Shown here: positions 1 through 64,000 of the stretch, one piece after another
How positions within the stretch are numbered: position 1 is the stretch's first letter
How the letters are laid out: each line of letters begins with the position of its first letter
DNA from: Candidatus Leptofilum proximum
Lineage (GTDB): Bacteria; Chloroflexota; Anaerolineae; Promineifilales; Promineifilaceae
DNA length: 64,000 nt
Assembly (NCBI GenBank): GCA_016710325.1
Contig: JADJXK010000002.1
Location: 946,622 to 1,010,621 of the forward strand
Reading direction: 5' to 3'
Notes under the pieces: generated by a model
Seen by the model: the letters and a program-made list of their open reading frames with translations, nothing else
Database searches by the model: none
What the model was told of the DNA's origin: nothing
Translations under genes and position numbers: made by a program

Positions 1-695
1 GCAATATCCTGCTCATCGCCGACGTTGCCCCTCGGGAGATCGACCCGATGCCGTTTGCGCTGCTCGTGACCAGCCTGCTGCTCTGGTGGAGCGTGTATCG
101 TTACTATTTGCTGGACCTGGCGCCAGTGGCCAGAAACATTTTTGTCGACATCATGCCCAACGGCATGTTGGCCATCGACAGCCGGGAGCGAATTATTGAC
201 ATCAACCAGACGATGTTAGAGGTGATTGGCGCCGAAGCCAGCCAGGTGATTGGACGGCCGTTCACCCAGGTGCTCAAGCCGTGGAAAAACATTGTCCAGG
301 ATTTGTGCAGTGACTCAAACGTTGGCACAGAAATTACGGTTGGCGACCGGTGGTTTGACCTGCAAGTTAAACCGCTCACCAACCGCAAGGGTGAAATGCA
401 GGGGCGGATCATCGTCTTGCATGATATTTCCCAGCGCAAACAGATGGAAGCAGAGCGCGAACGGCTCATTGTCTCCCTGCAAGACGCCCTGTCTGAGGTT
501 AAAAAGCTAAGCGGCCTACTGCCGATTTGCGCCAGCTGCAAAAAAATCCGGGATGATCAGGGGTATTGGCAGGATGTGGCTGTGTACATCCGCAACCATT
601 CTGAGGCGGAATTTACGCATGGCATGTGCCCAGAATGCATGGAAGATTTTTATAAAGAGCTGGCCAACAAGCGCCAAGGCAAAAAGAAGGAGTAG
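1..695 (+). CDS. PAS-domain sensor protein, 5' end cut by the window edge, with a C-terminal CxxC...H...CxxC module instead of a kinase
   Basis: Frame 3 is open from nt 3, and the listed ORF is 48..695. It has a TM-like segment (ALLVTSLLLWWSVY) and a PAS-like core (MLAIDSRERIIDINQTMLEVIG...GRIIVLHDISQRK). The tail reads LLPICASCKKIRDDQGYWQDV...HGMCPECM. Confidence 0.75.
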   Translation, partial: NILLIADVAPREIDPMPFALLVTSLLLWWSVYRYYLLDLAPVARNIFVDIMPNGMLAIDSRERIIDINQTMLEVIGAEASQVIGRPFTQVLKPWKNIVQDLCSDSNVGTEITVGDRWFDLQVKPLTNRKGEMQGRIIVLHDISQRKQMEAERERLIVSLQDALSEVKKLSGLLPICASCKKIRDDQGYWQDVAVYIRNHSEAEFTHGMCPECMEDFYKELANKRQGKKKE

Positions 696-51967: not shown

Positions 51968-54900
51968 ATGTCCACCGAACAATTTTGGCAGGCGCTTGAT
52001 GATGCCACCAACCCCACCGCCTACAAGCCGCTGCGTAACCCGCACATCGTGGTGTCGCGGCTGCAAAACCGGGCCGAGACGTATTACGTCATCAAGGAAC
52101 CGCTCTCCCGGTCGTACCTTCGGCTGGGGGAAGAGGATTACGCGCTGTGGTGGCAGATGAACGGCCGTAAATCCATCAAAGAGCTGCTGTACTACTGCCT
52201 CAAACGGTACAAAAAACTGCCCATCGGCCACCTCACCAGCCTCATCGGCGAGCTGAAAGAGGGCAACTTCCTGCAAACGCCCAACACCAGGGTATACGAC
52301 CAGATCGAAGCCGAGTTGGCCACCCGCGCCCCCGCCAGCCGCGGCCAAAAGCTGCTCAAAAGCTTCCTCTACACCGAGCTGGCCATCTCTGGCCTGGACG
52401 ATTTTTTTGTCCCGCTCTACAAACAGCTTAAGCCGCTCTTCTGGCCGCTGGGGCAAACGCTGCTCTTTTTGCTGGTGCTGGTGGGCGGCTTTTTCTTTGG
52501 CCTCAGCTACTTTTTTGGCGACTACAACATCACCGGCAGCGGCCTGGGTGTGCTTACCCTGCTGCTGGCCAACCTGCTGGTGATTGGCCTGCACGAGATG
52601 GCCCACGGCCTGATGACCAAACACGTGGGTCGGGAGCTGGGCCGGGGTGGCTTTTTGATTTACTGGGGCTTCCCCGCCTTTTTTGTGGATACGCGCGACA
52701 CCTGGCTGTCGCCCCGGCTGGACCGCATCAAGGTTTCCTGGGCGGGACCGTACTCCGGGCTGATGCTGGGCGGATTGGTGGGTGTGGTGCTGACGGCCGT
52801 TGCCGCCTTCTCACCCCCCGCATTCCAACAAACGCTCCTGGCCACCTTCCTCTTCCAGATTGGCTTCCTGGCTTACCTCAGCGTGGTGGTAAACCTCAAC
52901 CCGCTGCTGGAGCTGGACGGCTACTTCATGCTCATGGATTGGCTGGAGATGCCCGGCCTGCGCAACCGCGCCTTCGACTTTTTGCGCCACGAGCTGTGGC
53001 CCCGCCTGCGCGAAGCGCGCACACCTGCTAAATTTTGGCGCTCCCTCAACCGCGCCGAGCGAATCTTTACCCTGTTTGGGTTGATGGCCCTCGTCTACTC
53101 GATTTTTGCCCTGTGGCTGGCCCTTACCTTCTGGCAGGGGTACGTGAGCGAATTTTTCCTGAACTTGTGGCACAGCGACGCGTGGTGGGGCCGATTGGTG
53201 GTAGGCTTGATGACGGCCGTTCTCATCCTGCCCGCCCTCTACTACCTGGGGTTGTACAGTTGGAGCCGCATCCGGGCCGGGCTGGAATGGCTGGCTCGCC
53301 GCCAGCTGCTCTCCCGCACCGACGTCCTGGCCCTGCTGGTGGGGGTGCCCATTCTGCTCGGTGCACCGCTGGCTTACTTTTTCCTCAACCGCCTCAATCC
53401 GGCCCAGACCAGCCTGTGGCAGGGTATCTTTGTCTGGCTGCTGCACATCGGCACGGGGGCAGCGCTGGTGGGTGTGGCGCAGCAGCTGCCGGGATCAAGA
53501 TTTCAGTGGGCGCTGTGGGCGTTAACGGCCGTTCCCCTCACCCTTGCCCTGGCCTGGATCAGCCCCAACCCCTTTGGCCGCGATCTGTCCGTCATCGCCA
53601 CGGCAGCGGCCATCTTTGCTGCGGGTGTTGTGTCCTGGTTCACCATCAATCCCGGCTTCCTGGCAGGCAGCGACCGGCTGCTGATGGCCCTTTTCATCCT
53701 GCTGGGCGTTGGCACGTACACCGGGATGACCTACTATTTTGGCAGTGACGTTTTGGCGGGGAACGGCCGTTGGCTGGCAACGGCCGTCATCTGTCTGGGC
53801 GTTGGCCTGGGTCTGGCGTTAATGGCCCCCTTGCTGCTCAACTTTGCCCGCTCCCGCTTTGCCATCCCCTGGGGGCTGTTTGCCCTGGCCATGCTCATCA
53901 CCCCCTGGCTGCAAATTTACCCGCAGCTGGACTTCACCGTCATCACCCTCTGGCTGTATGCCGCCATCCTTTACCTGCTGCTGGGCACCCTGGCCCAATT
54001 CACCCGCCTGGAAACGGCCGAAAGTGAAACCGGCATCTTCAGCGAACGGCAGCGGCTGATCAACAGCTTCAACCAGTTCCTGCACGCCCTCTTCACCAGC
54101 TACGAAACGATCTTCGGCCAGCGCCGCCTAGCCCTAATCCAGAGCCAGATGGCCGCCCTGGGCGCGCTCGACGCCGACTCAACCATCCTGGAGCTGGGGC
54201 AGCACGCCCAAAAAGCGCTGCTGCTGGCCGTGGACCGGCTGGATGACCTGGCCGGGACGCCCTTCACCCGCAAAGCCGGGCAAGCTGCCTACGACAGCCT
54301 GGACTGGCTCGATGCCGAAACGCTGGCCCGGCACGTCCTGGCCAAAACCGAGTGGGGTACCCAGCTTGCCCAGGGCTTCATCCGCGCCCGCGACAAGCGC
54401 ATCGACCTCATCCGCCAGGCGGACCTGTTTGCCGGGTTCGACCAGGAAGGCGTGGAGGCGCTGCTGAAGGTGATGCGCCGCTGGCGCACCCGTCCCAACC
54501 AGATCATCGCCCACGCCGGGCGCGATGCTTTCTACTTTTACCTCATCGAAGCGGGGGAAGTGGGCGTGTATCACAACGGAGTCCAGCGGGCGATTTTGTC
54601 GGCGGGCGGGTATTTTGGCACGGCCGCTTTAGCCGGAACGGGCGTTTACCAGTTCACCTACCGCGCCCTCACGCCGCTCACCACCCTGGTCATCCACCGC
54701 GAGCAGTTTGATCCGCTGCTGCGCGCCGACACGACGCTGGCCCAGCAGGTGAGCTCGGGCGCGGAGGAACGCAGCCTGCTGCGGCAGATGCCCCTCTTCA
54801 GCAGCCTCAGCCCGCAGGAGCTGGCCTCGGTCGATGCCCGGCTCCAGCCGCGCCGCGTGAGTGCTGGCGAGCAGTTTGTGCAGCAGGGCCAGCCGCGCAG

Positions 54901-55201
54901 CCACCTGTTCATTGTTGCCGAAGGGGAAGTGGAAGTGTTTGTCACTGAAGACGGTGTTGAGCGGGTGATTGGCCGACTGGGGCCGGGCGAGCATTTTGGC
55001 GAATACGCCCTCTTTGCCGACACGCCGTACCATGCCAGCGTCCGCGCCGTGGTAGACGGCCGTCTCCTCCTCCTAGACGAACCCACCTTTGACAATCTCG
55101 TCGCCACCTGCGAGCGCATGACCCATTACGTGGAGCAAATCGGAAGCGGCCGTCTCATCGCCACCCGCCGCCGCGCCACTCCGGCGGCCCTTATTTCGTA
55201 A
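51968..55201 (+). CDS. Polytopic membrane protein with an M50-like HExxH site and two C-terminal cyclic-nucleotide-binding domains
   Basis: HEMAHGLMTKH in a TM context, more than 15 TM segments, then two cNMP-like modules (FAGFDQEGVEALL...YFYLIEAGEVGV and LFSSLSPQEL...HLFIVAEGEVEV...GPGEHFGEYAL). Confidence 0.85.
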   Translation: MSTEQFWQALDDATNPTAYKPLRNPHIVVSRLQNRAETYYVIKEPLSRSYLRLGEEDYALWWQMNGRKSIKELLYYCLKRYKKLPIGHLTSLIGELKEGNFLQTPNTRVYDQIEAELATRAPASRGQKLLKSFLYTELAISGLDDFFVPLYKQLKPLFWPLGQTLLFLLVLVGGFFFGLSYFFGDYNITGSGLGVLTLLLANLLVIGLHEMAHGLMTKHVGRELGRGGFLIYWGFPAFFVDTRDTWLSPRLDRIKVSWAGPYSGLMLGGLVGVVLTAVAAFSPPAFQQTLLATFLFQIGFLAYLSVVVNLNPLLELDGYFMLMDWLEMPGLRNRAFDFLRHELWPRLREARTPAKFWRSLNRAERIFTLFGLMALVYSIFALWLALTFWQGYVSEFFLNLWHSDAWWGRLVVGLMTAVLILPALYYLGLYSWSRIRAGLEWLARRQLLSRTDVLALLVGVPILLGAPLAYFFLNRLNPAQTSLWQGIFVWLLHIGTGAALVGVAQQLPGSRFQWALWALTAVPLTLALAWISPNPFGRDLSVIATAAAIFAAGVVSWFTINPGFLAGSDRLLMALFILLGVGTYTGMTYYFGSDVLAGNGRWLATAVICLGVGLGLALMAPLLLNFARSRFAIPWGLFALAMLITPWLQIYPQLDFTVITLWLYAAILYLLLGTLAQFTRLETAESETGIFSERQRLINSFNQFLHALFTSYETIFGQRRLALIQSQMAALGALDADSTILELGQHAQKALLLAVDRLDDLAGTPFTRKAGQAAYDSLDWLDAETLARHVLAKTEWGTQLAQGFIRARDKRIDLIRQADLFAGFDQEGVEALLKVMRRWRTRPNQIIAHAGRDAFYFYLIEAGEVGVYHNGVQRAILSAGGYFGTAALAGTGVYQFTYRALTPLTTLVIHREQFDPLLRADTTLAQQVSSGAEERSLLRQMPLFSSLSPQELASVDARLQPRRVSAGEQFVQQGQPRSHLFIVAEGEVEVFVTEDGVERVIGRLGPGEHFGEYALFADTPYHASVRAVVDGRLLLLDEPTFDNLVATCERMTHYVEQIGSGRLIATRRRATPAALIS

Positions 55202-56772: not shown

Positions 56773-56852
56773 CCCTATCACCCTATCACCTTGTCACCTT
56801 GTCACCTTGTCACCCCCTCACCCCTTCACCCCGTCACCCCCTCACCCCTTCA
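56773..56852. repeat. Tandem octamer array, 10 units of CCNNNTCA
   Basis: The ten units are: CCCTATCA twice, CCTTGTCA three times, then CCCCCTCA, CCCCTTCA, CCCCGTCA, CCCCCTCA and CCCCTTCA. Confidence 0.9.
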
Positions 56853-56933
56853 ATTCCTGGTTCCACACTACCGGTTGCTGGTACAATTCAACAGCCACAA
56901 ACAACTAGCTACTATGCAAAAGAGGAGAATCCC

Positions 56934-59171
56934 ATGTCCACTGTACTGAAATGGATCGTTCGTATCTTTGGCGTCCTGATTGGCGTGCTGCTGCTTATTT
57001 TTGTCGTGGCCGCCGCCATGCCCGCCAAGGCCGACCCCGACGTAGGCGAAAACCACGGCGCGGGGGCCAGCAGCGTGCAGCCATCGTACACCGGCTTGCA
57101 GCGTGAATTCCCGGCTCTGAACGAAACGGCCGCTAACCCCACCACCGACGCCAAAGCCGAGCTGGGCCGCTTACTCTTCTTCGATCCGGTGCTGTCTAAC
57201 AACAACGACACTGCCTGCGCCACCTGCCACCAGCCGGATTTGGGCTTTGCCGACGGCCGTATCCACGCCGTCGGCCCCACCGGTGTTGAGCAGACGCGCA
57301 ACACCCCCGGCCTGTGGAATGTTGGCTATGCGCAGAATTTGTTCTGGGACGGCCGTCTCGACTCCCTCGAAGCCCAATCCGAAATTCCCCTCACCCACCC
57401 GGATGAAATGGGCGTGGCCGACACCGCTGGCCTGGTCTCCGAAGTGGCGGCCATCGACGAGTACGAAGCGATGTTCAACGCCGCCTTCGATGACGGCGTG
57501 ACGCTGGCCAACATTGAAAACGCCCTGGCGGCGTTCCAGCGCACCCTCATCAGCAACAACAGCCCGTTTGACCAGTACGCCGCGGGCAAGGTGGATGCGC
57601 TGACGCCCAGCCAGCGGCGCGGCCTGGCGCTGTTCCGCTCCGGCGCAACGCGCTGCTTTGAGTGCCACACCGCCCCCACCTTCGCCAGCGACGGCTTCCG
57701 CGTGGTGGGCGTCCCCAGCGACGATCCGGGCCGGGCGGGCGTGGTGGCCGATGGCCTGGTAGGCGCGTTTAAGGTACCGTCGCTGCGCAACGTGGCCCTG
57801 ACGGCGCCATACATGCATGACGGCTCATTGGAAACGCTCGAAGCGGTGGTCAATTTTTACGCTGACGGCGGCGGCCGCCTGCACGGGCAAGAAAATGTGG
57901 ATGTGTTTGTCCAGGGCTTTGAGCTGACTGATCAGGAGCGTTTGGATCTGGTGGCGTTCCTCTACGCCTTAACAGATGAAAGCAATATGCCGGAAATTCC
58001 CACGGCCGTTCCCTCCGGCCTGCCCGTCATTGCACCCACCGATAACCCGGCTCGCGCCGAAGTGGCAGCGCACAACGTCGGTGGTAACAGCGGCATTGAT
58101 TTGGGCGACCGGGAACCAATGACGATTGTGGTGCAAGAAGGGGAGAGTGTGCAAACGGCCGTCGATCGCGCCCGCCCCGGTGACATCATCGAAGTGCCCT
58201 ACGGCATTTATCACGAACGTGTCGTTATCGACATCAACGACATCACCCTGCGCGGCATCCCCAACGAGGCGGGTGAATGGCCCATCTTCGACGGCGAAGG
58301 CGTGCGGACGGAAGCCGTTATCGCCTCTGGCAACAACTTCACCGTGGGCAACCTGCACGTGCGCAACTACACCGACAACGGCGTCCTGGTGGAAGGTGTG
58401 ACCGGCGTGCATTTCCACGACATCTTTGCCGAAAACGTGGGCACTTACGGCGTCTACCCCGTACGCAGCACCGAGGTGTTGATTGAGCGCGTGGAGGTCA
58501 CCGGCGTGGATGATGCCGGGATTTACGCCGGACAGTGCGAAAATGTCATTGTGCGTGACAGCGTGGTGTATGGCAATGTGCTGGGCATCGAGCTGGAAAA
58601 CACGATCGGCGGCGAAATCTACAACAACCACGCCTACGACAACACGGTAGGCATCTTCGTCGTCCTCTTGCCGCAGCTCACTTCAAAAGTATCGGCCAAC
58701 ACGCTAGTGTACAACAACATCGCCGAGGGCAACAACCACGAAAACTTCGCCCCACCTGGAGCAATGGCCGAGATTGCTCCGTCCGGTGTTGGCATCCTGC
58801 TGCTGGCTACAGACAACGCCGAGGTGTATGACAATACCATCCGCGACAACAAGACCACTGGCGTGGCGGTCTTCAGCCTCACCAGCACCGGCGCGTTTGA
58901 TGTAAACGAGGTGGATGTGGGGCCGCTGCCGGAAAACAACTGGATACACGGCAACACCTACGAAAACAACGGCTATGATGCCGATCCATTTGTGAAGGAT
59001 TTAGGGATTCCCACGGCCGATATACTCTGGGACGGCACGGGTATGGACAACCGCTTCAACGAAGAGGGTGCTTCCACCTTCCCGCCGCTGGTGCCAGGTG
59101 ATGGCTGGCCCAGCTTTGTGCGGCGCGGCTACACCAACATCCTCGGCTTTTTGGTGGACCAAATCCTTTAA
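56934..59171 (+). CDS. Di-heme cytochrome c peroxidase (CCP/MauG family) fused to a right-handed parallel beta-helix (NosD/PbH1-like) domain
   Basis: N-terminal TM anchor. CATCH and CFECH heme motifs with PSLRNV...PYMHDG. The C-terminal half has repeated G..V....N..V.DN units. Start at the ATG at 56934 with an AGAGGAG SD, because the ORF start at 56799 lies in the octamer array. Confidence 0.85.
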   Translation: MSTVLKWIVRIFGVLIGVLLLIFVVAAAMPAKADPDVGENHGAGASSVQPSYTGLQREFPALNETAANPTTDAKAELGRLLFFDPVLSNNNDTACATCHQPDLGFADGRIHAVGPTGVEQTRNTPGLWNVGYAQNLFWDGRLDSLEAQSEIPLTHPDEMGVADTAGLVSEVAAIDEYEAMFNAAFDDGVTLANIENALAAFQRTLISNNSPFDQYAAGKVDALTPSQRRGLALFRSGATRCFECHTAPTFASDGFRVVGVPSDDPGRAGVVADGLVGAFKVPSLRNVALTAPYMHDGSLETLEAVVNFYADGGGRLHGQENVDVFVQGFELTDQERLDLVAFLYALTDESNMPEIPTAVPSGLPVIAPTDNPARAEVAAHNVGGNSGIDLGDREPMTIVVQEGESVQTAVDRARPGDIIEVPYGIYHERVVIDINDITLRGIPNEAGEWPIFDGEGVRTEAVIASGNNFTVGNLHVRNYTDNGVLVEGVTGVHFHDIFAENVGTYGVYPVRSTEVLIERVEVTGVDDAGIYAGQCENVIVRDSVVYGNVLGIELENTIGGEIYNNHAYDNTVGIFVVLLPQLTSKVSANTLVYNNIAEGNNHENFAPPGAMAEIAPSGVGILLLATDNAEVYDNTIRDNKTTGVAVFSLTSTGAFDVNEVDVGPLPENNWIHGNTYENNGYDADPFVKDLGIPTADILWDGTGMDNRFNEEGASTFPPLVPGDGWPSFVRRGYTNILGFLVDQIL

Positions 59172-60817: not shown

Positions 60818-60846
60818 TTGACCGATAAAAAAAGGCATGGTAGACT
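60818..60846 (+). promoter_or_regulatory. Near-consensus sigma-70-like promoter of the 23-aa peptide gene
   Basis: TTGACC, a 17-nt spacer, then TAGACT. Confidence 0.55.
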
Positions 60847-60892
60847 GTCCGCCGTAGCAAATACTAAAATTCTTAAAGGAGGTACCCACAAG

Positions 60893-60964
60893 ATGGCCCA
60901 AGTGAAAAGTAACATCTTCCAAAACGTTATTGAACGTTGTGTGGGTACACCTGGTAACTGCTAG
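60893..60964 (+). CDS. Candidate small peptide gene (23 aa, two Cys)
   Basis: Hand translation gives MAQVKSNIFQNVIERCVGTPGNC, ending at TAG. AAAGGAGG lies 10 nt upstream. It has its own promoter and terminator. Local GC content is clearly lower than in the flanks. Confidence 0.45.
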   Translation: MAQVKSNIFQNVIERCVGTPGNC

Positions 60965-60999
60965 AGATCCAAAACTAATTCTATTTGGATAAATTTGCG

Positions 61000-61029
61000 G
61001 CCACGGGTGTACATACCTGTGGCTTTTTT
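61000..61029 (+). terminator. Intrinsic terminator after the peptide ORF
   Basis: GCCACGGGT, loop GTACAT, then ACCTGTGGC (9 bp with one G-T pair), followed by TTTTTT. Confidence 0.65.
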
Positions 61030-61103
61030 GTTGCCTGTTTCCGGCAGCTTAACTGTTCCGCTCAGATTCCTTATCTGGCAATCCTACTTTATGCGGAACA
61101 GTA

Positions 61104-61137
61104 GCCACCATCACACAACCGCGATCGGTGGCTTTTT
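61104..61137 (+). terminator. Second, weaker terminator-like hairpin
   Basis: GCCACC...GGTGGC plus TTTTT. It is preceded by a 9-bp CTGTTCCGC/GCGGAACAG hairpin. Confidence 0.3.
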
Positions 61138-61235
61138 GTTTCTCTCCCCCTCATCAACCACACAAAAGCCACATCCCCTGTACAAATTTCAGGATGTTTG
61201 CCGGAGCATAACAAAACCGGCGCAGTATAAAACTG

Positions 61236-62201
61236 ATGAGCAAATTTGCGGCTTTTGAAGAATTTGAAGATTACCAGTATCAAGACAACAGTCGGGAAGC
61301 CCGGCGCAGCCGGACCAAGCCTAACAAAAACAAGCAAGTGCGGAACGGCCGTCCCCAACAAACCATGCAGGATATCCGCGAAATGGATGACGGCATCGAA
61401 ACCTGGGTGCCCAGCTATGCCAGGGCACTCGATCCGCAGCACCACGAGCGGCAGTGGGTCATTGAATCCGTTGGTCCCTTTTACCGTGACCAAATCGTCA
61501 CCGACGTGACCCGTCTGGTGAAAGGGGGCAAAGAGGCCAATGTCTATGCCTGCACCGGCCATCCAGCCACAGGTATAGACCTCATTGCAGCCAAACTGTA
61601 CCGTCCGCGAGAACTGCGCCACCTGAAAAATGACGCCATCTACAAGGCAGGCCGCCAGCTGCGGGATGCAGACGGTAAAGAGATCAAGGGGCGACGTGTC
61701 AAGCTGGCGCTGAGTAAAAAAACCAGCTATGGCAAGTCCGTTGATATTCAATGGTGGATTGGCAATGAATACCGCACCCAAACCCAGTTGTTTGAGGCCG
61801 GAGCCGATGTGCCCAAACCCATTGCCCACCAGGGCAACACCGTCCTGATGGCCTACATTGGCGATGAATATGGCCCGGCACCCACGCTGAGCGAGGTGCG
61901 CCTGCCCCGCGAGGAAGCAGCGCCGCTGTTCCGGCGCATCATGGACAATGTGGCGCTAATGCTGGACAACCACCTCATCCACGGCGACCTGTCGGCCTAT
62001 AACATTTTGTACTGGGATGGCGCAGTGTACCTGATCGACTTCCCGCAGATGGTGGAGGCGCGACACAACCCGCATGCTTACGAGCTGCTGGAGCGGGACA
62101 TCACCCGCGTATGTGATTACTTTGCCGGTTATGGCATTAAAACCAATCCGGTGGCGCTGACGCACAGCCTGTGGGATCCGTATATGGGGCCAGGTGGATA
62201 A
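61236..62201 (+). CDS. RIO-type (RIO1 family) atypical serine protein kinase
   Basis: GGKEANVY (P-loop-like), LIHGDLSAYNIL (catalytic loop), IDFPQ (metal-binding loop) and a basic N-terminal extension. Confidence 0.8.
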   Translation: MSKFAAFEEFEDYQYQDNSREARRSRTKPNKNKQVRNGRPQQTMQDIREMDDGIETWVPSYARALDPQHHERQWVIESVGPFYRDQIVTDVTRLVKGGKEANVYACTGHPATGIDLIAAKLYRPRELRHLKNDAIYKAGRQLRDADGKEIKGRRVKLALSKKTSYGKSVDIQWWIGNEYRTQTQLFEAGADVPKPIAHQGNTVLMAYIGDEYGPAPTLSEVRLPREEAAPLFRRIMDNVALMLDNHLIHGDLSAYNILYWDGAVYLIDFPQMVEARHNPHAYELLERDITRVCDYFAGYGIKTNPVALTHSLWDPYMGPGG

Positions 62202-62206
62202 GACAA

Positions 62207-64000
62207 ATGACACGAGAAATGAGTAACTGGGAGCTGCTGACGCAATATTTACGGCCGTACACCGCCCGTCTCTTAGGGCTGAGCACCCTGCTGGCCGTCA
62301 GTATTGCCCTCCAGCTCTACGGCCCCCAGGTCATTCGTGACTTTTTGGATGCGGCGCAAAGCGGTACGGCCGTACGGCCGTTGGTCACCCTGGGCGCGCT
62401 GTTTTTTGTGGTGACCGTGGCGCAAAAGGCCGTGGAGCTGTGGACGACTTACCTGAGTGAAGACCTGGGTTGGGCGGCCACCAACGGCCTGCGCGCCGAC
62501 CTGGCTGCCCACACCATGCGGCTGGACATGGGTTTCCACAAGCTGCAAACCCCCGGCGAACTCATCGAGCGGATCGATGGCGACGTGAGCAACCTGGCCG
62601 AGTTTTTCTCGCGGCTGGTGATCCGGGTGTTGGGCAACGCGGTGCTGGTCATTGGCATCCTGGTGCTGCTGTTCCGCGAGGATTGGCGCATTGGGCTGGT
62701 GGGGCTGGGCTACGGCCTGCTCACGCTGGGGCTGCTGCAAATCATCCGCAAACCGACGGTGAGCGTCTGGCGCGAGGTGAGCAAGGGATATGCCAGGCTG
62801 CACGGCTACGTTGAGGAACGCATCGGCGGCACGGAAGACATTCGCGCCAATGGCGGCGAGCCGTACGTGTTCCACAAGCTCTACCCGCTGCTGGCCGACG
62901 TGGCCAAAAGCCGCGTCAAGGCCGACGTGATCGGTGGTTACACCTTCAGCAGCAGCTACATGCTGTACGTCCTAGCGATTGTGGTCACGCTGGCGCTGGC
63001 GGGAACGTTTTTCCTGCAAGGGCAGATCACCATTGGCACGCTGTTTCTGCTGGTGGCCTACGTGCGGCTGATGGAATCGCCAATTAAGTACATCCGGCGG
63101 CAAATCAGCGACATGCAGCGCGCCGTGGCCAGCATCGGCCGTATCAACGAGTTTATGCGCCTGGAACCAGATGTGAAGGAGTCCGTAACTGCCAGTTTGC
63201 CCGATGGGGCAACGGCCGTTGCCTTCCACGGTGTCTCGTTTGCCTATAAAGACCGGTTGTCGGTAGTCGGTGAACGGTTATCGGTGAACGGATTGCCGAT
63301 TACGGATAACCGATTACCGCTTACCGATAACGGATTACCGAACGTGCTGCACGATGTCACCTTCACCCTGGAGGCGGGCAAAGTGCTGGGGCTGCTGGGG
63401 CGGACGGGCAGCGGCAAGACGACTCTGACGCGGCTGCTCTTCCGGCTGTACGACGTGGATGCGGGGCGCATCACGCTGGACGGCACCGACCTGCGCCAGG
63501 TGAGCCTGGCCGACGTGCGGCAGCACATCGGCATGGTGACCCAGGACGTGCAGCTGTTTGCCGCCACCGTGCGGGACAATCTGACGCTGTTCCGCCGCTA
63601 CGATCCAGACAAACCACCGATTCCCGACAGTGAGATCGAGGCCGCCCTGCACACGCTGGGTCTGGGCGACTGGCTGGCCAGCCTGCCCGACGGCCTGGAC
63701 ACGGAACTAAAAACGGGCGGGCAGGGGCTGTCGGCGGGGCAGGCGCAGCTGCTGGCTTTTACGCGCGTCTTTTTGCGCAATCCGCAGCTGGTGATTCTGG
63801 ACGAGGCCTCATCTCGGCTGGACCCAGCCACGGAGCAGCTTTTAGAACGAGCGATTGACACGCTGCTGACCGGCCGTACCGCCATCATCATCGCCCACCG
63901 CCTGCACACCGTGCAGCGCGCCGACGACATCTTGATTTTGGAGAACGGCTGCATCCAAGAACACGGCCCCCGCTTACACCTATTCAACAATCCCAATTCC
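62207..64000 (+). CDS. ABC exporter, fused permease/ATPase, paralog of 20037..21836; 3' end beyond the window; carries an in-frame repeat insertion
   Basis: Hand translation from the ATG at 62207 gives [18 protein letters not shown]...[14 protein letters not shown]. The NBD has [31 protein letters not shown] and AHRL. The frame stays open to nt 64000. It is not in the ORF track because no stop lies in the window. Confidence 0.88.
63254..63343. repeat. Periodic repeat, CGGTAAN family, inside the ABC CDS
   Basis: Thirteen successive 7-nt units: GGTTGTC GGTAGTC GGTGAAC GGTTATC GGTGAAC GGATTGC CGATTAC GGATAAC CGATTAC CGCTTAC CGATAAC GGATTAC CGAAC. They translate as [29 protein letters not shown]. 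Confidence 0.85.

Follow-up and report, generated by a model that had tools for sequence, protein, structure and literature searches.

A putatively translated leader upstream of the RIO kinase gene rioB in Chloroflexota and Thermaceae probably acts as a ribosome-dependent transcription attenuator

A 64,000-nucleotide (nt) stretch of the Candidatus Leptofilum proximum genome (assembly GCA_016710325.1, contig JADJXK010000002.1, positions 946,622 to 1,010,621; the whole stretch is called the window here) contains a short open reading frame (ORF) with its own promoter and terminator, which precedes a gene for a RIO (RioB-type) kinase/ATPase. Our comparative analysis indicates that this element is probably the 5′ leader of the rioB operon and attenuates transcription in a ribosome-dependent manner, with the Shine–Dalgarno (SD) sequence of the leader itself in the role of segment 1. 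This reading is drawn from sequence comparison and RNA folding, and its basis is the conservation of the parts of the element, the conservation of the reading frame, two alternative pairings and the synteny with rioB. Bacterial RIO (RioB) proteins are widespread homologues of the essential small-subunit maturation factors of archaea and eukaryotes. A leader-ORF transcription attenuator specific to rioB in Anaerolineae-type Chloroflexota and Thermaceae has apparently not been described. A preliminary description of the region had presented the element as a self-contained mini-gene for a two-cysteine peptide; its promoter, SD sequence, ATG, ORF, small hairpin, first terminator and 9-bp stem, as well as the AT-rich gap, a second terminator and the RIO and ABC genes, were all found at the same positions in our analysis.

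Results

Organization of the leader in the window

All parts of the element are encoded on the forward strand. The promoter (60818–60846), identified by a promoter scan, consists of the −35 hexamer TTGACC (60818–60823), a 17-nt spacer and an extended −10 element TG-n-TAGACT (60841–60846), and transcription would start at about position 60853. The SD sequence AAAGGAGG (60875–60882) and the spacer GUACCCACA (60882–60890) together make up segment A (60875–60890), the 5′ arm of a helix that sequesters the SD sequence. The leader ORF (60893–60964) begins with the ATG at 60893, comprises 23 codons encoding MAQVKSNIFQNVIERCVGTPGNC and ends with TAG at 60962–60964. Codons 16–21 contain segment B, an anti-SD sequence (UGUGGGUACACCUG, 60940–60953) that has two possible partners, segment A and the 5′ half of the terminator. 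In the A:B pairing of the window, 60940–60948 pair with 60882–60890 and 60950–60952 with 60877–60879. The minimum-free-energy fold (−53.9 kcal/mol, z = −3.3) includes the 9-bp stem and also joins the AGG of the SD sequence to the CCU at 60950–60952.

The terminator T1 (60999–61030) is composed of segment C, i.e. the 5′ arm and loop (60999–61013), segment D, the 3′ arm (61014–61024), and a U-tract (61025–61030); its stem has 11 pairs (60999–61024) before the T-tract. The sequence CGGGUGUAC (61004–61012) of segment C is complementary to GUACACCUG (60945–60953) of segment B, which gives the antiterminator B:C. Between the stop codon and T1 lies the small hairpin AUCCAAA/UUUGGAU (60967–60991, arms at 60967–60973 and 60985–60991), which is retained in the close clade only. 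The GC content of the gap, 0.40–0.45 compared with about 0.6 in the flanks, makes it AT-rich. Counted in the window only, promoters and terminators occur at chance level (two promoter-like sites versus 1.1 expected). The element stands above chance because it is conserved, with one covariance-model match per locus in 51 loci, always 5′ of the RIO gene.

The leader is a constant 5′ neighbour of the RIO gene

A genome collection was scanned with the RIO protein, which yielded 60 loci from Chloroflexota metagenome-assembled genomes (MAGs), namely Promineifilaceae, Ardenticatenaceae and ‘Ca. Leptofilum’, and from Meiothermus and Calidithermus. The leaders of the relatives were compared by tblastn, blastn and a covariance model on the loci. 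In 12 species, the RIO proteins of which are about 80–96% identical, the DNA of the mini-gene is 83–91% identical over its full length. In more distant loci, SD sequence, ATG and an ORF of 22–29 codons recur 236–473 nt upstream of the RIO gene. The covariance model, R1, was built from 43 sequences and gave exactly one match per locus, on the forward strand and upstream of the RIO gene, in each of the 51 Chloroflexota loci with enough upstream DNA; five of these loci were outside the seed. Elsewhere in the 722 kb searched, the rest of the window included, R1 found no further match with an E-value below 0.1. The promoter, of the form TTGACn-16..18-TA(G/A)ACT, is located 17–48 nt before the SD sequence in 39 of 40 Chloroflexota-type loci and in 25 of 28 metagenome loci.

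The constant partner of the leader is the RIO gene, while the genes upstream and the ABC exporter gene differ among loci. Thus, of the synteny that the preliminary description proposed to check, the link with the RIO gene held, and that with the ABC exporter did not, since the latter is absent from many loci that retain both the mini-ORF and the RIO gene. ‘Self-contained’ is likewise not an apt term for an element that without exception adjoins the RIO gene on its 5′ side and whose terminator, in Meiothermus, ends about 20–35 nt before the RIO ribosome-binding site. In one Ardenticatenaceae genome (L059, 5664–5759), the leader is present as a diverged copy that scores 48 bits; it is followed by a RIO match of only 33% identity, and the RIO N-terminus appears broken. 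The locus may be a paralogue in decay.

The reading frame is conserved and the peptide is not

A leader ORF is present in 46 Chloroflexota, 35 metagenome and 7 Deinococcota loci; the conserved frame has 20–29 codons, and its length differs by whole codons only. In the 43-sequence alignment, every GGAGG column is either invariant or conserved to at least 90%, and the ATG is invariant or nearly so. The ATG and the helix anchor are 52, 55, 58 or 61 nt apart in 42 of 43 sequences, i.e. their distance changes in steps of 3 nt only, and the stop codon follows 11–20 nt beyond the anchor, again in 42 of 43. Over the same span, frames +1 and +2 are interrupted by stop codons in 34 and 29 of 46 sequences respectively. 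As expected of an attenuator, the element thus has a short leader ORF with a ribosome-binding site that appears to be under selection for translation.

The encoded peptides, such as MAQVKSNIFQNVIERCVGTPGNC, MQVQFITFSQAIVCIVRTPAFL, MANISITLVTLREQRCAGPSAPR and MSAKVNSEKAVARRCAGISTPLR, can hardly be aligned between clades. Within the close clade, variable sites are distributed 6/6/8 over the three codon positions and dN/dS is about 0.47; this comparison of synonymous and nonsynonymous changes, which had been suggested as a check, does not support a peptide gene. The codons AAC AUC UUC and CGU UGU GUG GGU ACA CCU are invariant in this clade, third positions included. In translation, the 3′ arm of the helix reads RCVGTP, which becomes RCVRTP, RCVSTP or RCAGPS together with compensatory changes in the SD-proximal arm. 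Where this arm changes from GUACCCACA to GUACGCACA or GUACUUACGC, the codons change alongside and Gly is replaced by Arg or Ser. The C-x6-C pair noted in the preliminary description is real in the window, but the second cysteine (Cys23) is restricted to the closest clade. No conserved run of codons was found in the leaders: the N-terminal halves are unrelated between clades, and the only recurrent codons are those for Pro (CCU), which lie on the anti-SD sequence.

Because SD sequence, ATG and frame are kept while the peptide drifts and the helix covaries, selection seems to act on translation and on RNA structure, not on the peptide, which is a hallmark of a regulatory leader ORF. An amino-acid-sensing attenuator of the trp/his/leu subtype was rejected, as tandem regulatory codons were not found. 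A type I toxin or small membrane protein was also rejected: the peptides are short, mostly polar or mixed and without a conserved hydrophobic span, in agreement with the earlier remark that the peptide is not like a type I toxin.

The SD sequence is paired with a covarying anti-SD sequence

RNAalifold returned no consensus structure for the MAFFT alignment of the 43 sequences. A:B was tested as a named structure on the same alignment, and 89% of the cells were paired, compared with 27–60% when the partner was slid. Six of ten pairs were changed on both sides and 38 cells were compensatory, a result matched by none of 500 shuffles. The proposal that the 9-bp stem could gate translation is strengthened by this covarying helix of the SD region.

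Terminators and the alternative pairing B:C

In most loci, an intrinsic terminator is found 54–99 nt after the stop codon of the ORF, and one or two more often follow. The terminator sequence is unusually conserved across clades (GGCCACrGGUGUAC..CCUGUGGC, also written GGCCACrGGUGUAC...CCUGUGGCUUUUUU). T1 of the window and its counterparts in most loci thus provide the intrinsic terminator between leader ORF and RIO gene that an attenuator needs.

For B:C, 88.9% of the cells were paired in 25 distinct sequences, compared with 24–66% for slid partners, with eight compensatory cells and none of 500 shuffles reaching this result. Across clades, column alignment failed, since CCUCCU gives two registers, and B:C was judged by the energies of cognate and non-cognate duplexes. 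The cognate duplex had a mean of −17.6 kcal/mol compared with −11.6 kcal/mol with shuffled C. When B and C were combined between loci, same-class pairs reached about −17.2 and cross-class pairs about −14 kcal/mol, the former being more stable by about 3–3.7 kcal/mol. Therefore the two variants of B (GUACRCCU or YGYGCCU) change between clades in concert with those of C (AGGUGUAC or AGGCGCG). In constrained folding, blocking the 5′ part of the leader, in the way that a slow or initiating ribosome would, replaced the terminator by the antiterminator in 19 of 38 loci tested, the window among them, and the terminator returned when the ribosome was placed over B. The antiterminator is thus predicted by folding to be exclusive with the terminator and to depend on the position of the ribosome.

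Two or three tandem terminators with the common stem core GCCAC...GUGGC lie within the RIO leaders of the window and of L012, L014, L017, L023, L028, L031 and L034. The second intrinsic terminator of the window, T2 (AGCCACCAUC...GAUCGGUGGCU and a U-tract, 61103–61141), shares the core GCCAC/GUGGC with T1. A degenerate third terminator-like element CAAAAGCCAC with the hairpin ACAUCC/GGAUGU (61163–61197) occupies the place where L014 and L017 have an intact third terminator. In some relatives, there is perfect complementarity between the 3′ arm of a terminator and the 5′ arm of the one that follows it. The tandem terminators could be fail-safe terminators or a register-shift relay. A ‘domino relay’, in which B captures C, the freed D pairs with the 5′ arm of T2 and antitermination propagates, was unsupported by folding of the window, where T2 stayed formed and D found its partner in the downstream CAAAAGCCAC, whose transcription comes too late to have an effect. 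In relatives such as L014, where D2 and C3 are perfectly complementary by eye, such a relay may operate.

Leaders of distant loci

A metagenome scan with the RIO alignment provided 80 more loci with RIO identities of 41–68%, about 20 of which had an R1 match upstream of the RIO gene. A generic detector, requiring an SD sequence, an ORF of 14–36 codons and an A:B duplex at least as stable as −15 kcal/mol, was positive in 35 of 67 distant loci, compared with 3.5% of shuffles and 12% of reverse complements. In Anaerolineales-type loci, the SD context is AAAGGAGGC(A/G)CG, the anti-SD sequence is GCGCGCCUCCU, read as xAPP, and the terminator arm is CCGCAGGCGCG; all three differ from the window clade, and A, B and C have therefore changed together. 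The named homologues of the RIO protein of one of these metagenome loci (L134) are labelled Anaerolineales or Chloroflexota.

In 12 loci (L092, L096, L097, L103, L105, L117, L120, L123, L124, L134, L135 and L139), an invariant diproline, xAPP or xVPP, falls exactly on the anti-SD sequence GCGCCUCCU, and the frame is kept across N-terminal lengths of 12–19 residues. Diproline motifs are EF-P-dependent stall sites; a stall at this motif would park the ribosome on segment B.

In a second phylum, the Deinococcota, represented by Meiothermus and Calidithermus with RIO identities of 35–40%, a promoter, AAGGAGGUGA, an ORF of 20–28 codons and a strong terminator were found. Duplex energies of the Deinococcota loci are −15 to −24 kcal/mol for A:B and −20 to −24 kcal/mol for B:C. 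The terminator of Meiothermus and Calidithermus ends about 20–35 nt before the SD sequence and start codon of the RIO gene, which leaves no room for a separate promoter, so that the RIO gene would be reachable by read-through only. The leader ORFs of six Deinococcota loci (L051–L055 and L058), about 385–570 nt upstream of the RIO match, start with AUG repeated two or three times in a row (MM or MMM).

The RIO gene and its neighbourhood

The RIO gene of the window (61236–62201, forward strand) matches Pfam RIO1 (PF01163) with an E-value of 4.8e-37. The motifs GKEA, HGD.S..N and IDFPQ are invariant across the Chloroflexota and Deinococcota homologues (alignment A3), and the protein accordingly has the features that characterize the RIO family: a Lys for ATP binding, HGD..N as the catalytic loop and, in IDFPQ, the D that binds the metal. 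The source databases label the homologues ‘RIO1 family regulatory kinase/ATPase’. The promoter scan of the window showed no promoter-like site between T1 and the RIO gene; merely weak, unconserved hexamers were present, and a separate promoter of the RIO gene was rejected for this reason. The RIO start codon of the window clade has no SD sequence, unlike the RIO genes of Meiothermus, which have AAAGGAG. Directly before the RIO start codon of the window (61200–61235), a hairpin is followed by an A-rich stretch of about 13 nt. This hairpin, GCCGG/CCGGC (61200–61221), lies 14 nt 5′ of the RIO ATG, and its structure, not its sequence, is kept in L003 and L007.

Five nucleotides past the RIO stop codon, an ABC exporter gene with transmembrane and nucleotide-binding domains (ABC_membrane and ABC_tran; 62207–64000, forward strand) begins and runs off the window; it probably belongs to the same operon. 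The gene order in the window and its relatives is RIO, two ABC genes and a GNAT acetyltransferase, and elsewhere RIO and rhomboid; the two ABC genes of the window clade form a heterodimer-type exporter pair. Inside the exporter gene of the window (63261–63341, forward strand), an in-frame tandem repeat of a heptamer or 14-mer (GATTACC; ACGGATTACCGATT) lies between the transmembrane and ATPase domains. The reverse-complement motif CCGTAATCCG recurs in the RIO-leader spacers of L014, L017 and L028, and the repeats may represent a lineage-specific heptanucleotide repeat family that invades coding and non-coding DNA.

Further upstream on the forward strand, the window encodes a 790-amino-acid fusion of a di-haem cytochrome c peroxidase (CCP_MauG) and a NosD/right-handed beta-helix domain (56799–59171), and a 1077-amino-acid protein whose sole Pfam matches are two C-terminal cyclic-nucleotide-binding domains (51968–55201).

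Discussion

A proposed ribosome-dependent attenuator of rioB

Our data are best explained by a leader in which four segments would compete: A, the leader SD sequence and spacer; B, the anti-SD sequence inside the ORF at about codons 16–21; C, the SD-like 5′ half of the terminator; and D, its 3′ arm. If no ribosome binds, A:B would close the SD sequence and the start codon, C:D would form and transcription would stop after about 175 nt (OFF). A ribosome that is initiating, or slow in roughly the first 12 codons, at the time when C emerges would keep A from B, B:C would form and RNA polymerase would read through to rioB (ON). If, finally, the ribosome quickly reaches the stop codon, B would be covered, C:D would form and transcription would stop again (OFF). 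In this scheme, the kinetic order of the events, the inducing condition and, in the window clade, co-transcription of leader and rioB are inferred. The leader would report the pace of translation relative to transcription, and slow elongation at a time when ribosomes are able to initiate would induce rioB. Since there are no amino-acid-specific codon runs, the signal would be general translation performance, and the leader peptide itself would be a by-product. The kept frame, the covariation of A:B and B:C and the synteny with the RIO gene all speak for the ‘regulatory leader peptide’ that was among the candidates of the preliminary description.

Several observations weigh against this interpretation. 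The GC-rich relatives L040, L041, L045, L047 and L049 have no canonical U-tract terminator, and in the subclade of L016, L022, L025, L026 and L038 there is no significant B:C complementarity (z about 0 to −1.5). Within the Chloroflexota set, covariation of B:C is modest and partly confounded, because some positions of C pair with D too. A constraint covering only the ribosome footprint leaves the terminator unflipped, as A:B re-forms around the ribosome in silico; the switch thus presupposes, on steric grounds, that A and B cannot pair while a ribosome sits between them. T2 of the window clade remains folded in both modelled states. Moreover, the generic detector, crude as it is, was negative in 32 of 67 distant loci, and every sequence comes from MAGs, metagenomes or unannotated genomes.

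Alternative explanations

The same three pairings could be controlled by a protein that stabilizes A:B as an anti-antiterminator and promotes termination, with translation of the leader as a merely auxiliary process; RioB, a ribosomal protein or the free 30S subunit, the latter via the SD sequence or the SD-like terminator arm, would be candidates. The logic of A:B, B:C and C:D is that of the Bacillus subtilis rplJL leader, in which L10(L12)4 makes the anti-antiterminator more stable and a leader peptide is also translated (PMC4538822). Furthermore, A:B mimics the duplex of mRNA and 16S rRNA (SD/anti-SD), the Rio proteins of eukaryotes and archaea act on precursors of the small subunit (PMC5815136), and the sequence of the terminator stem is more conserved across clades than is usual. 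However, nothing points to a specific protein, and the strict frame and the fixed position of the stop codon relative to B are predicted by a mechanism based on ribosome position and needless for a pure protein switch. We therefore regard protein control as improbable. It is also rather unlikely that the element is an independent small RNA (sRNA) or dual-function RNA, i.e. a transcript of roughly 175 nt that ends at T1 or T2 and acts in trans, with the linkage to rioB reflecting a shared function. The conserved promoter, the strong terminators (two in tandem in the window) and the stable fold (z = −3.3) would suit such an RNA, and a terminated leader is expected to accumulate under either model. 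A pure sRNA, one of the earlier candidates, is disfavoured because the reading frame is conserved, as is the start codon. In addition, R1 found no copy away from the RIO gene in 722 kb, the RIO ribosome-binding site of Meiothermus directly follows the terminator, no conserved single-stranded seed is apparent and Rfam gave no match.

Very unlikely, finally, is a genuine small-protein gene, whose peptide of 20–29 amino acids would be a precursor of a ribosomally synthesized and post-translationally modified peptide (RiPP), a signalling peptide, or a partner or substrate of the kinase or exporter. ORF, SD sequence and ATG are conserved, the peptide of the window has two cysteines and an ABC exporter pair is encoded downstream in the window clade. 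On the other hand, the peptides are almost unalignable between clades, and what is conserved in them is encoded by a covarying RNA helix, with Gly, Arg or Ser at one position. Variability is flat over the codon positions at a dN/dS of about 0.47, and the second cysteine is clade-specific. Nine peptide variants had no significant match in Pfam or NCBIfam (the best E-value, 0.23, was below the curated cut-off). No radical-SAM, YcaO, LanM or peptidase-ABC genes were found near the element in the window and its relatives, and the ABC genes are missing from many loci. For these reasons, the RiPP precursor was rejected, and with it the secreted or RiPP-like peptide of the preliminary description.

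Comparison with known attenuators

In Rfam 15, the window gave no match at the gathering threshold; the best E-value on the locus was 0.46 and came from the terminator alone. Twenty related loci from three clades gave no match either, and literature searches found no description of a RIO-kinase leader or upstream ORF. The proposed attenuator shares with the trp/his-type attenuators of enterobacterial amino-acid operons the translation of a short leader ORF, four segments whose 1:2, 2:3 and 3:4 hairpins exclude one another, the last being the intrinsic terminator, a stop codon placed so that the terminating ribosome masks segment 2, and termination in the untranslated state too. It differs in that segment 1 is the leader's own SD sequence and spacer upstream of the AUG, so that the closed state also stops translation of the leader, in that there are neither regulatory codon runs nor a conserved peptide, and in that the target is a RIO kinase and not a biosynthetic operon.

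The bmrB-bmrCD leader of B. subtilis and mef/mel-like antibiotic-responsive attenuators also combine a small leader ORF, the translation of which is required, with alternative stem–loops including an intrinsic terminator (PMC4191407). bmrB-bmrCD, moreover, responds to impaired translation and not to one amino acid, as the rioB leader would, and a heterodimer-type ABC exporter pair is part of the window-clade operon as well (PMC4191407). In bmrB, however, the terminator lies inside the coding region and not 35–100 nt past the stop codon; the conserved target here is rioB and not a transporter, and a response to antibiotics is known for the bmrB-bmrCD and mef/mel-like attenuators. The rplJL leader resembles the rioB leader in its three competing structures before a translation-related gene and in a translated leader peptide that modulates expression (PMC4538822); the anti-antiterminator of the rioB leader differs in being an SD:anti-SD duplex. 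As in ermC-type translational attenuators, an SD sequence is masked by a segment that a ribosome on the leader ORF can unmask. In ermC, the masked SD sequence is that of the downstream gene and the output is translation, whereas here it belongs to the leader itself and the output is most likely transcription termination.

Implications for RioB

If our interpretation is correct, the rioB leader represents a new attenuator design, in which the leader's own SD sequence serves as the anti-antiterminator arm and a terminator arm imitates an SD sequence. The element can now be searched for with a covariance model. It also carries a warning for annotation, as RNA structure can produce well-formed cysteine-containing ‘mini-genes’ as by-products.

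What bacterial RioB does in vivo has been described as poorly characterized (PMC5815136). A deeply conserved cis-regulatory device before rioB would be the first regulatory clue to this protein, as expression of rioB would be tied to the performance of ribosomes on a test ORF. Tentatively, and with clearly more doubt than for the attenuator itself, the leader might be seen as a dedicated gauge of ribosome performance, made up of an SD sequence, an SD-like terminator arm and an internal anti-SD sequence that mimics the 16S 3′ tail. Its place before rioB would then date from a time before the Anaerolineae clades and Thermaceae acquired the gene or diverged with it, and RioB might be a factor related to translation or to the small subunit. 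Poor elongation by ribosomes that do initiate would induce RioB, or RioB would feed back on its own leader by recognizing the SD:anti-SD duplex. Were this true, bacterial RioB would be the functional counterpart of the archaeal and eukaryotic Rio proteins in small-subunit maturation.

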